Assembly (NCBI GenBank): GCA_019651095.1
Contig: BOXR01000001.1
Span: forward strand, 224,405 to 288,404
Direction: 5' to 3'
Length of the DNA stretch: 64,000 nt
Origin: Ectothiorhodospiraceae bacterium
GTDB lineage: Bacteria; Pseudomonadota; Gammaproteobacteria; GCA-002705445; GCA-002716945
The notes beneath the pieces were generated by a model. The model was not told the origin of the DNA, made no database searches, and was given only the letters and a program-made list of their open reading frames with translations. The position numbers and the translations under genes are program-made. The stretch's first letter is position 1. Each line of letters starts with the position of its first letter. Positions 61,585 to 63,356 of this stretch are shown piece after piece.

Positions 61585-62508
61585 ATGAAATGCATTAAAT
61601 ATCCAGGCCTACTGTCATATGTAGCGGCGTTATTGTTGTCGTCGAATATTGCTATGGCTGGCGGCGTTAAAGATGCTGTTAACCAGGCCAAAGATAGGGC
61701 CCTCCAAAATGCTTTCTCTTATGGAGATTCTGCTATCGAATCATGGGCTAGAGATAACTTATCTAGCTTGAGACTTATAGAAATTGAGACTAGAACAAGA
61801 CAAAGTTCTAAACCCACTTTTAGGGCAATCTCATTATTTGAAATTACAGGCAACGATTTTACTAAAATTCTAACTCAATTGTCCTACTCAACATTTGATG
61901 ACAATGAGACATTAAATGCAGGTCTCGTTTACAGGATGATGAATGAGGATATGACGGTCATCTATGGCCTAAATGTATTTTATGATCATCAGTTCAATAC
62001 TGGACATGCTAGAACTGGGCTGGGCTTTGAGATGAAGTCAAGTGTTTACGATGTAAATATTAATCTGTATGATGCGCAAACCGAAATTCACCATGTTAAT
62101 GGTGTTCCAGAAGTTGCTGCTGGCGGATATGATGCTGAAATTGGTGCGCAAGTTCCATACCTGCCATGGGCCAAACTGTACTATAAAGCTTATCAGTGGA
62201 ATAATGAAACGCTTAATATTAAAGACGGGGAGAATATTAGTCTATATATGGAACCAACACCACGCTTATCAGTTGAGTTAGGTGTTCAAGATGATGACAA
62301 TATGGATAGCGAATCTTTTCTTAAATTGAATTACGTTATTTGTTGTAATGAGAGAAGAATAGGGCCATCAATATTTACTGTTTCAAATAGTGCATTCAAT
62401 TACGGCAAAATTGATAGTCAGAGAATGTATGAAAAGGTTAGAAGAGAAAATAATATAATCACAGTTAGAGGCGGCGGCGCCTTTACAGTAACTGCGAGCG
62501 GATTCTAA
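61585..62508 (+). CDS. inverse-autotransporter (intimin/invasin family) beta-barrel domain protein lacking a passenger
   Basis: Signal peptide MKCIKYPGLLSYVAALLLSSNIAMAGG. The core aligns by eye with the intimin beta-domain: NAGLVYR..YGLNVFYDHQF..HARTGLGFEM..NINLY..GGYDAEIGAQVPYLPWAKLYYKAYQW... The linker-type motif MYEKVRRENNIITVR compares with intimin YDLVQRNNNIILEY. The protein ends 15 aa later. Confidence 0.7.
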   Translation: MKCIKYPGLLSYVAALLLSSNIAMAGGVKDAVNQAKDRALQNAFSYGDSAIESWARDNLSSLRLIEIETRTRQSSKPTFRAISLFEITGNDFTKILTQLSYSTFDDNETLNAGLVYRMMNEDMTVIYGLNVFYDHQFNTGHARTGLGFEMKSSVYDVNINLYDAQTEIHHVNGVPEVAAGGYDAEIGAQVPYLPWAKLYYKAYQWNNETLNIKDGENISLYMEPTPRLSVELGVQDDDNMDSESFLKLNYVICCNERRIGPSIFTVSNSAFNYGKIDSQRMYEKVRRENNIITVRGGGAFTVTASGF

Positions 62509-62510
62509 TA

Positions 62511-63356
62511 ATGAAAAAATTTCTGATTATTTTTATATCAATCTTCATGATTCCTCTCATAGGTAATACAGAGACTTGTTCTGTGTCGTCGGGAGTAACT
62601 ACTATTTCTGGAGGCAGCTGCGGTAGTCAGCCAGATTCTTATGGGATAAATATGTATAAAATGTATTTATGTACATCTGCACCAACTCAACCAACAACAT
62701 CTTCCACAGCTGATTTAGATGCAGGTGGTTGTGTACTCGTACTCAATGGCGGGACTGATGGAGTAAGGGTCGATGTGACAGGATCAACTAAAGTAGAATT
62801 TACAGGTGCAACTTTCACGAAACCCGCACAAGGTGTGTATACGCATGGTTATATGCATATAGATAATGTATTTTATATTAAGCAACAAAGAATTTTTAAT
62901 GAGGCAAAGGAAGGCTTAAAAAGTGGGACGGATAATGGTATTCACTGTTCAACACTTTCTGGAACGGGCTCCGACTCTGATCAGAATTCAACTTGTGGAT
63001 CTTCAGCTATAACACCAGGTACTTGGGGTTCAGTGTTGACAGACTTAGATGGCGGTACGGCTGGGTTCCAAGCAAGCGCAGAAGCAACCAACCTTAATAA
63101 TACTGGAAGTGATATAAAAGGTATTCTTCTTGATAGTAACGCATATACGGCTGAGACTGCAGGCGAAGTTGATACTCTAGCTGGATTTCAAACTTTTGGC
63201 ACACCGGTAACGGTTGGTCTTAATACGAAATCATTTGATATTGCATTTGGCATAACAGAAGGCTCAACTATTTTTGAGGATGACAGCGACCCAAATGTAG
63301 TTGGATTTAGTAGTGGTCCTTTCCAAGCTGTTATTATTCCTATAAACCACGAGTAA
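62511..63356 (+). CDS. secreted Gly/Thr/Ser-rich protein of unknown function with its own signal peptide
   Basis: 281 aa. MKKFLIIFISIFMIPLIGNTETC.. signal sequence, several Cys pairs, no TM, acidic. Starts 2 nt after the barrel gene stop. Confidence 0.55.
   Translation: MKKFLIIFISIFMIPLIGNTETCSVSSGVTTISGGSCGSQPDSYGINMYKMYLCTSAPTQPTTSSTADLDAGGCVLVLNGGTDGVRVDVTGSTKVEFTGATFTKPAQGVYTHGYMHIDNVFYIKQQRIFNEAKEGLKSGTDNGIHCSTLSGTGSDSDQNSTCGSSAITPGTWGSVLTDLDGGTAGFQASAEATNLNNTGSDIKGILLDSNAYTAETAGEVDTLAGFQTFGTPVTVGLNTKSFDIAFGITEGSTIFEDDSDPNVVGFSSGPFQAVIIPINHE

Follow-up and report, generated by a model that had tools for sequence, protein, structure and literature searches.

The question raised by this locus is whether an inverse autotransporter (type Ve) barrel protein that lacks a passenger, and a separately exported protein encoded directly downstream of it, constitute a split secretion unit. 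The two genes, called A and B below, occupy positions 61,585 to 63,356 of the window, that is, the whole stretch of 64,000 nucleotides (nt) of contig BOXR01000001.1 (Ectothiorhodospiraceae bacterium, assembly GCA_019651095.1) that was analysed. Sequence comparison supports the view that A is a true barrel-only inverse autotransporter, and that A and B form a conserved, translationally coupled unit in which B has a separate Sec signal. The two are almost certainly a functional pair, and the reading favoured here, by a modest degree of confidence, is a split (two-polypeptide) type Ve unit in which the exposed tail of the barrel would dock B or carry it to the cell surface. The features of gene A are the following (aa, amino acids).

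61575..61581, plus strand: Shine-Dalgarno-like GGGGGAG, 4 nt before the ATG of gene A (read from the sequence).
61585..62508 including the stop codon, plus strand: gene A, passenger-less inverse autotransporter (type Ve) barrel protein of 307 aa (ATG 61585, TAA 62506-62508; Pfam IAT_beta).
61585..61659, plus strand: predicted signal peptide of A, residues 1-25, with cleavage after AMA (sequence pattern of n-region, h-region and AxA).
61666..62451, plus strand: IAT_beta match, residues 28-289 of A, covering the barrel and the start of the pore-traversing linker (Pfam profile, alignment to 4E1T).
62440..62469, plus strand: linker motif RRENNIITVR, residues 286-295 of A (alignment to invasin; consensus over 33 loci).
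62470..62505, plus strand: C-terminal tail GGG-AFTVTASGF, residues 296-307 of A, a Gly connector and one terminal beta-strand-like segment ending in ASGF-COOH.

The start of gene A is placed at ATG 61585 rather than at GTG 61573, which lies four codons upstream and is the mechanical first start, because of the GGGGGAG at 61575-61581. The encoded protein begins with a signal peptide, MKCIKYPGLLSYVAALLLSSNIAMA, followed by GG, which is of the AxA type (…SSNIAMA/GG) as judged by sequence pattern. It matches the Pfam profile IAT_beta (PF11924; curated cut-off 22.3 bits) with 101.3 bits and an E-value (E) of 9.3e-29, residues 28-289 aligning with profile positions 19-279 of 279, and a search of the window's own genome with this profile returned a single locus, that of gene A. 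Furthermore, A aligns to the solved invasin barrel 4E1T at chain positions 39-241 of 245 (E 1e-6), linker included, VRRENNII of A standing opposite VDRNNNIV of invasin. Beyond IAT_beta, no further Pfam domain was found in A, and NCBIfam gives only far sub-threshold matches to named inverse autotransporters; in particular, the score against YchO/YchP is 26.5 bits for an equivalog cut-off of 508, so that A does not qualify as a YchO/YchP family invasin.

The segment RRENNIITVR is the counterpart of the (Q/D)RNNNI(I/V) segment of intimin and invasin together with the short strand that lies at the barrel's extracellular mouth, and it leaves only 12 residues, GGGAFTVTASGF, before the end of the chain. 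Over 33 loci the C-terminal consensus is R.YEpVkRENkI.vV…VkASGF, with ASGF kept in at least 90% of them, at identities of A down to 22%; no part of A is better conserved than its last strand, ...V-x-A-S-G-F-COOH. The tails of divergent pairs read …VSGF, …TTGF, …IVGY and …LSGF. The linker of intimin closes with a short strand (about I444-Y448), which is part of a small sheet at the outer barrel mouth and is essential for stability and hairpin formation; from there, some four residues in extended form run to D00, the first Ig-like domain (PMC13078405). By this alignment, IITVR of A would match the short strand of intimin and GGG its connector, and AFTVTASGF would take the place of the first strand of the first passenger domain.

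The features of gene B follow directly.

62509..62510, plus strand: 2-nt spacer 'ta' between the stop of A and the start of B (read from the sequence; translational coupling).
62511..63356, plus strand: gene B, Sec-exported, acidic, Gly/Thr/Ser-rich partner of 281 aa, predicted to be all-beta (ATG 62511, open reading frame; AlphaFold2 model).
62511..62570, plus strand: signal peptide of B, about residues 1-20 (alignment of homologues).

The signal peptide of B is MKKFLIIFISIFMIPLIGNT, followed by ETC, and the cleavage regions of its homologues (…SYA/AC, …AEA/AC, …GNA/STC) place the invariant Cys23 1-3 residues past the likely signal-peptidase I site, with no lipobox. Mature B has about 261 aa, a mass of 26.8 kDa, an isoelectric point of 4.2 and 37% Gly+Thr+Ser. 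Six invariant cysteines form three close sequential pairs (23/37, 54/74 and 146/162, that is, 14, 20 and 16 residues apart), and disulfide loops of this kind are tolerated by type V passengers. The motif YTHGxMxIDNxF is also strongly conserved. Neither Pfam nor NCBIfam gives any match to B at E<=1. An AlphaFold2 model built from 31 sequences is all-beta, with several strands of 12-17 residues, a mean predicted local distance difference test (pLDDT) of 83.5 and a predicted template modelling score (pTM) of 0.78. Foldseek comparison of this model with the PDB returned nothing significant (best E 0.2, TM-score at most 0.13), nor did comparison with BFVD (best E 0.05), and the B profile had zero matches among PDB sequences; the modelled fold is therefore unmatched in the libraries compared, and B is not a recognisable Ig or Big domain. 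Two other natures were considered for B. A lipoprotein was rejected, since there is no lipobox and the position of the cysteine relative to the h-region varies. An outer-membrane barrel was likewise rejected on account of the acidic composition, the three disulfide-type cysteine pairs, the absence of an aromatic C-terminus and the lack of any significant structural match to barrels.

These results bear out most of what the initial annotation had read from the letters. The 307-aa product does have a signal peptide and an intimin/invasin beta-domain, the profile being matched over its whole length and above its cut-off; the post-barrel linker motif is present; and the protein has no passenger, its homologues being equally short. 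The 281-aa partner starts two nucleotides downstream, is Gly/Thr/Ser-rich and acidic, and has its own signal peptide and no recognisable family, as had been stated. The distance of 15 residues given from motif to stop holds if counted from the end of NNII, whereas from the end of RRENNIITVR it is 12.

The stop codon of A is not an artefact, given the lengths of its homologues and their common end point. Indeed, the homologues of A form more than 240 clusters of 289-315 aa, whose sources are without exception marine metagenomes or single-cell genomes, and 387 clusters of the SAR11-type homologue are 280-307 aa long; the search that started from a SAR11 A added no diversity, all its matches being at least 81% identical. 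The complete loci that were fetched all have A ending at one and the same position, with the same tail. In the window, A and B lie in different reading frames, so that no simple read-through joins them, and no A-B fusion occurs among the 150 listed B-family representatives nor among the A homologues listed. The fused versions that the initial annotation had thought worth looking for were thus not encountered, and the artefactual stop that it wanted excluded is contradicted by hundreds of clusters with the same end.

The pairing of A with B is conserved far beyond the window. Homologues of B fall into 86 clusters in a word-indexed search, and a profile search gave 880 representatives at 50% clustering, nearly all of 260-330 aa. 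An IAT_beta gene lies immediately upstream of B homologues that are 54%, 38% and 30% identical, in three different neighbourhoods: the first with TPR and MerC genes (the window and locus L001), the second in SAR11, with proteorhodopsin upstream and NAD kinase downstream, on a contig of 1.3 Mb, and the third beside an opp-type ABC operon (L005). A scan of one genome per species yielded 32 loci from uncultured marine Gammaproteobacteria and Pelagibacteraceae, which were joined with loci L001-L006. An A homologue ends 1-3 nt before B in all 36 of the first-fetched loci that have upstream DNA, the two without an upstream A being located at contig ends. Six divergent pairs (L039-L044) likewise consist of a barrel gene and then B, the divergent pairs including four very divergent ones from SAR11 genomes, and at three loci retrieved by the profile search (L047, L049 and L050) a B-family gene again stands behind an IAT_beta gene. 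In total, 45 B-family genes directly follow an IAT_beta gene, and in all complete related loci the two are separated by 1-3 nt or overlap at start and stop. Furthermore, the identities of A and B co-vary (r = 0.90 over 528 locus pairs). The co-occurrence proposed as a check by the initial annotation is therefore found, in several unrelated contexts, and this conserved, coupled adjacency rules out its alternative of an orphan, YchO-like barrel beside an unrelated protein.

Several loci depart from the simple pair. Genome G013 has a barrel gene with two B paralogues, of 291 and 285 aa, in tandem behind it (L039, 2128-4775); a search of the same genome found a B-like fragment of 57 residues beyond them as well as a second, divergent A-B pair (L040). 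At L047, a passenger-less inverse autotransporter of 690 aa (1929-4001) has an N-terminal region of about 410 residues that is rich in coiled-coil-like sequence and presumably periplasmic, and it ends 15 residues after RQNRII; the start of its 705-aa partner (4001-6118), which consists of three Cadherin-like domains and a B domain, overlaps the stop of the barrel gene. Among the profile matches, a B domain stands after three Cadherin-like domains in P0322, which itself follows a passenger-less inverse autotransporter, and before BNR/sortilin repeats in P0348; Cadherin-like and BNR modules are typically extracellular. At L048 (Joint Genome Institute metagenome 3300013094), a protein with a B domain and BNR/sortilin repeats (2896-4839) starts 1 nt after the gene for a 351-aa signal-peptide protein (1839-2894) that has repeated GWNL motifs and ends in …TFSVGVSGF. 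This carrier has no Pfam or NCBIfam match and scores only 1.5 bits against the profile of the A family, and is thus not an inverse autotransporter. An end of the form V-x-x-S-G-F is expected about once per 10^5 random proteins, a rough estimate from residue frequencies. In view of this rarity and of the carrier at L048, the tail, more than the barrel, appears in this one case to travel with the B domain.

Further observations concern the same loci. An integrase-like gene and a resolvase gene lie near the L047 pair. A SAR11 genome (G063) has a second barrel-only inverse autotransporter (L045, 1725-2663; E 1.3e-31) with the tail …GGLVIGRGS, followed after 2 nt by a signal-peptide protein of 314 aa (2666-3610) that is Cys-rich and Thr/Ser/Asn-rich and is missed by the B profile; this pair is located after an HlyD-like gene, and it suggests that barrel-only inverse autotransporters have further partner families, with the type of tail tracking the type of partner. 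At L004, which comes from a long-read assembly, A and B look broken, A being called as 242 aa and a gap of 303 nt holding the rest of it; the probable cause is a frameshift error in this Pilon-polished, long-read contig rather than real decay. The tail of A was also considered as a canonical beta-signal of outer-membrane proteins, which has hydrophobic residues at -2 and -4; this is unlikely, as the hydrophobic residues of the tail stand at -3, -5 and -7, and it is disfavoured too by the same tail on a protein outside the A-type barrels (L048).

The two genes differ in how they vary. When SAR11 loci L017 and L023 are compared, proteorhodopsin and gene A are 90-97% identical in nucleotides; exactly at the A/B junction the value drops to 58-70%, and after B it is back at 80-90%. 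Between the near-identical gammaproteobacterial loci L008 and L009, the only dip (81-89%) lies inside B. L008 and L007 resemble each other more in the A-B pair than in the flanking DNA, which suggests that the pair was transferred by recombination. B is less than 70% identical in 23 of the 72 locus pairs whose A proteins are at least 90% identical. B thus changes much more rapidly than A, whether by evolution or by replacement. Purifying selection acts on both genes: the ratio of nonsynonymous to synonymous substitution rates (dN/dS) is 0.06-0.17 for A and 0.05-0.19 for B, dS being saturated in several pairs. From this local hypervariability, combined with purifying selection within alleles, we infer that B bears the mark of an exposed protein under frequency-dependent selection.

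Taken as a mechanism, the split unit would work as follows. A would be assembled with the help of the barrel assembly machinery (BAM), and its linker would thread the 12-stranded barrel as in intimin and invasin, so that its last nine or so residues would lie at the external opening of the pore or pass through it, in the place of the first strand of D00. B, made from the same message as A, would be exported by Sec, disulfide-bonded in short loops, and could bind the tail of A by strand addition; it would then be carried out during or after the BAM-assisted assembly of A, or at least be held on A at the cell surface, as a variable, disulfide-stabilised surface protein of streamlined marine bacteria. 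The parts of this proposal differ in strength. Docking of B on the tail is probable; exposure of B at the surface is a little less so, and stands slightly on the favourable side; translocation of B by or with A is plausible but somewhat doubtful. A search for secretins (PF00263) found none in 10 module-bearing genomes, five of which are at least 90% complete with at most 5% contamination, and matched in the control genomes, so that no type II route is evident. Sec signals are absent from type I substrates. The only evident way out of the periplasm, if B does leave it, is therefore A with BAM.

Several points weigh against the split unit. The pore of the solved intimin and invasin barrels is filled by their own linker (PMC13078405), which makes the passage of a second chain hard to picture. 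B is not Ig-like, and no homology ties it to known passengers. Two B-family pairs lack the G-F/Y end of the tail (L047, …TASAI; L050, …KVGGS), and the occurrence of the tail on another carrier is limited to the single locus L048. In some SAR11 loci, A, its stop, 3 nt and B lie in one frame, and an uninformative co-fold of such a read-through fusion, with the stop read as Gly, reached a mean pLDDT of 50 and a pTM of 0.44, the A half scoring 20-30 (18 fused and 17 B-only rows). Finally, the hypervariability of B could stem from relaxed constraint, against which its dN/dS of 0.05-0.19 argues.

The alternative that survives best, and that is nevertheless rather unlikely, is a periplasmic complex: A would be only an outer-membrane anchor with its tail in, or back in, the periplasm, as in the resting state described for ZirT by Heinz et al. 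(2016), and B would dock there and never be exposed. It would fit the occupied 12-strand pore of the solved relatives (PMC13078405), and B has a Sec signal only, with no recognisable outer-membrane targeting feature, and proteins with disulfide bonds do fold in the periplasm. In a periplasmic protein, however, such sharp local hypervariability between near-identical genomes would be unusual; modules typical of extracellular proteins are fused to the B domain; and A keeps the linker motif that, in its relatives, places the C-terminus outside the cell. Less probable still, and judged improbable, is that B crosses the outer membrane by type II secretion, in vesicles or by lysis and then docks on the tail of A, which would be a pure anchor. 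Here, the precedent is an invasin-like adhesin of Acinetobacter that lacks a barrel and is described as a type II substrate (PMC9245377), and the tail on the non-barrel carrier of L048 suggests that docking is separable from the barrel; however, the 10 genomes without a secretin gene include some that are 92-99% complete, genomes of about 1 Mb hold few secretion systems, and the strict translational coupling of B to a barrel gene is better explained by co-assembly. The last alternative, an orphan barrel beside an unrelated secreted protein or an assembly-artefact stop that splits a normal inverse autotransporter, could appeal to the weak YchO/YchP match but is effectively refuted by the comparative data, namely by a score far below the cut-off, adjacency in 45 cases from at least four contexts and two bacterial classes, a stop and tail conserved in hundreds of clusters, the absence of fused forms among the sequences listed and the different reading frames of A and B in the window.

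The split unit can be compared with several known systems. With the canonical inverse autotransporters (intimin, invasin and FdeC; barrels 4E1S and 4E1T), A shares the signal peptide, a full-profile IAT_beta barrel and the linker V-R/K-R-E-N-x-I, equivalent to R-N-N-N-I, which threads the pore to the strand at its outer mouth. In contrast to them, A carries no IgSF/Big (or lectin) passenger on the same chain, stopping after a Gly connector of 3 residues and a strand of about 9, and has no LysM or other periplasmic domain; the possible passenger is here a separate, Sec-exported, non-Ig-like polypeptide. Closer is the type termed 'two-partner inverse autotransporters' by Heinz et al. (2016; PMC4943183), which includes ZirT/ZirS/ZirU of Salmonella, SinH/SinI and the Yersinia Yfr4/Rat-like systems, and for which that paper reports secretion of ZirS and ZirU via ZirT as experimentally shown. 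There too, an inverse autotransporter barrel gene is followed, within one operon, by one or more co-oriented signal-peptide genes without a barrel, and one barrel serving two partners resembles the two tandem B paralogues of G013. The differences are that, as described in the same paper, ZirT, SinH and Yfr4 keep FnIII/IgSF passenger domains of their own, which their partners resemble, whereas A has only its tail; that B has no detectable Ig, Big or FnIII similarity; and that the hosts are enteric pathogens in one case and free-living, streamlined marine plankton in the other. Heinz et al. (2016) also describe a clade of inverse autotransporters with very short C-terminal extensions, which they regard as a possible origin of the family; by architecture alone, barrel plus very short extension, A is like these, for which sections 9 and 11 of that paper give no obligate partner, tail motif or function (PMC4943183).

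With classical two-partner secretion (type Vb, FhaC/FHA), only the logic is shared, a barrel gene beside a gene for a separately Sec-exported substrate. A does not belong to the Omp85/POTRA proteins, a TPS domain is lacking in B (no such Pfam match at E<=1), and here the barrel gene comes first and the partner is small (26.8 kDa). In chaperone-usher pili, donor-strand complementation lets a short terminal beta-strand complete or extend the sheet of another protein; the proposed way in which B would be held is analogous, with no sequence or structural relationship. The initial annotation had considered that such an arrangement would be a different one, more like two-partner secretion. The coupling of a barrel to a separately exported partner stands, whereas the arrangement is not wholly different, in view of the ZirT/ZirS/ZirU type described by Heinz et al. 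(2016). A full-text literature search yielded neither a paper that connects inverse autotransporters with SAR11 or SAR86 nor one since 2017 that carries the ZirT idea over to barrel-only forms. The A-B pair is thus an extension of the two-partner idea known from ZirT/ZirS and not a category of its own; what it adds is that a passenger is wholly missing, that the partner family is non-Ig-like and unmatched, that the ...ASGF tail is conserved and that the partner is hypervariable.

The module is hosted by marine Gammaproteobacteria with genomes of about 1 Mb and by SAR11. Among 61 relatives of the window's genome, 17 have B, and these belong to 3 of the 30 genera; it is present in 17 of 21 sampled SAR11-family genomes, and in an even phylum-wide sample of 401 genomes it was found in the window's own only. 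On these counts, the module is common to unrelated, co-occurring, streamlined marine lineages and rare elsewhere. The window's genome is a 737-kb assembly, 69% complete, relatives having about 1.0-1.1 Mb, and the guanine-plus-cytosine content of the window is 33-39%.

As for the neighbours in the window, a 131-aa membrane protein of the MerC family (63357-63752, minus strand; Pfam MerC, E 2e-23) is convergent with gene B and also neighbours the module at L001; no other mer gene is found among the open reading frames listed for 58000-64000. Directly upstream of gene A are two TPR-repeat proteins (59336-60637 and 60725-61522, plus strand), the former with a weak C-terminal match to glycosyltransferase family 9 (E 0.005). 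The TPR genes are considered to lie outside the conserved unit because they are present in L001 and absent from the SAR11 and opp contexts. Upstream of these, a DUF1326 protein (58632-59234, plus strand; E 1.4e-46) is syntenic in L001 and lies near the module in L039. In SAR11 (L002, L004 and L017-L038), the A-B pair is directly downstream of the proteorhodopsin gene, co-oriented with it, at a gap of about 250 nt. A promoter and terminator scan gave a number of sites no higher than in shuffled sequence.

In its widest form, which is put forward tentatively and is rather doubtful, the proposal is that the pair represents a distinct branch of type V secretion with its passenger in trans: a tag of about nine residues, F-x-V-x-A-S-G-F-COOH, on the barrel, in the usual place of the first strand of the first passenger domain, would be captured through strand addition by a so far undescribed family of all-beta, disulfide-bridged domains, and the partner would cross the outer membrane as part of this non-covalent 'hairpin', which would then keep it in place. 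Since the tag appears to be portable (the non-barrel carrier) and the partner gene swapped by recombination, SAR11 and other dominant ocean bacteria could in this way bear a surface coat that is exchangeable and faces phages or grazers. Type V secretion counts as the simplest way in which Gram-negative bacteria export proteins, the formation of the first "hairpin" in the pore being an open question (PMC13078405). If the proposal is true, separate barrel and passenger chains joined by a short tail would be a ready-made tool to part docking, hairpin formation and translocation. The module is found in very abundant organisms whose streamlined genomes have few dispensable genes, and the B gene is among the most variable spots between genomes that are otherwise near-identical. 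B, which has no name, Pfam family or structural relative, may thus be a major, variable component of the cell surface in marine bacterioplankton, with a possible bearing on phage adsorption, grazing and strain-level diversity.

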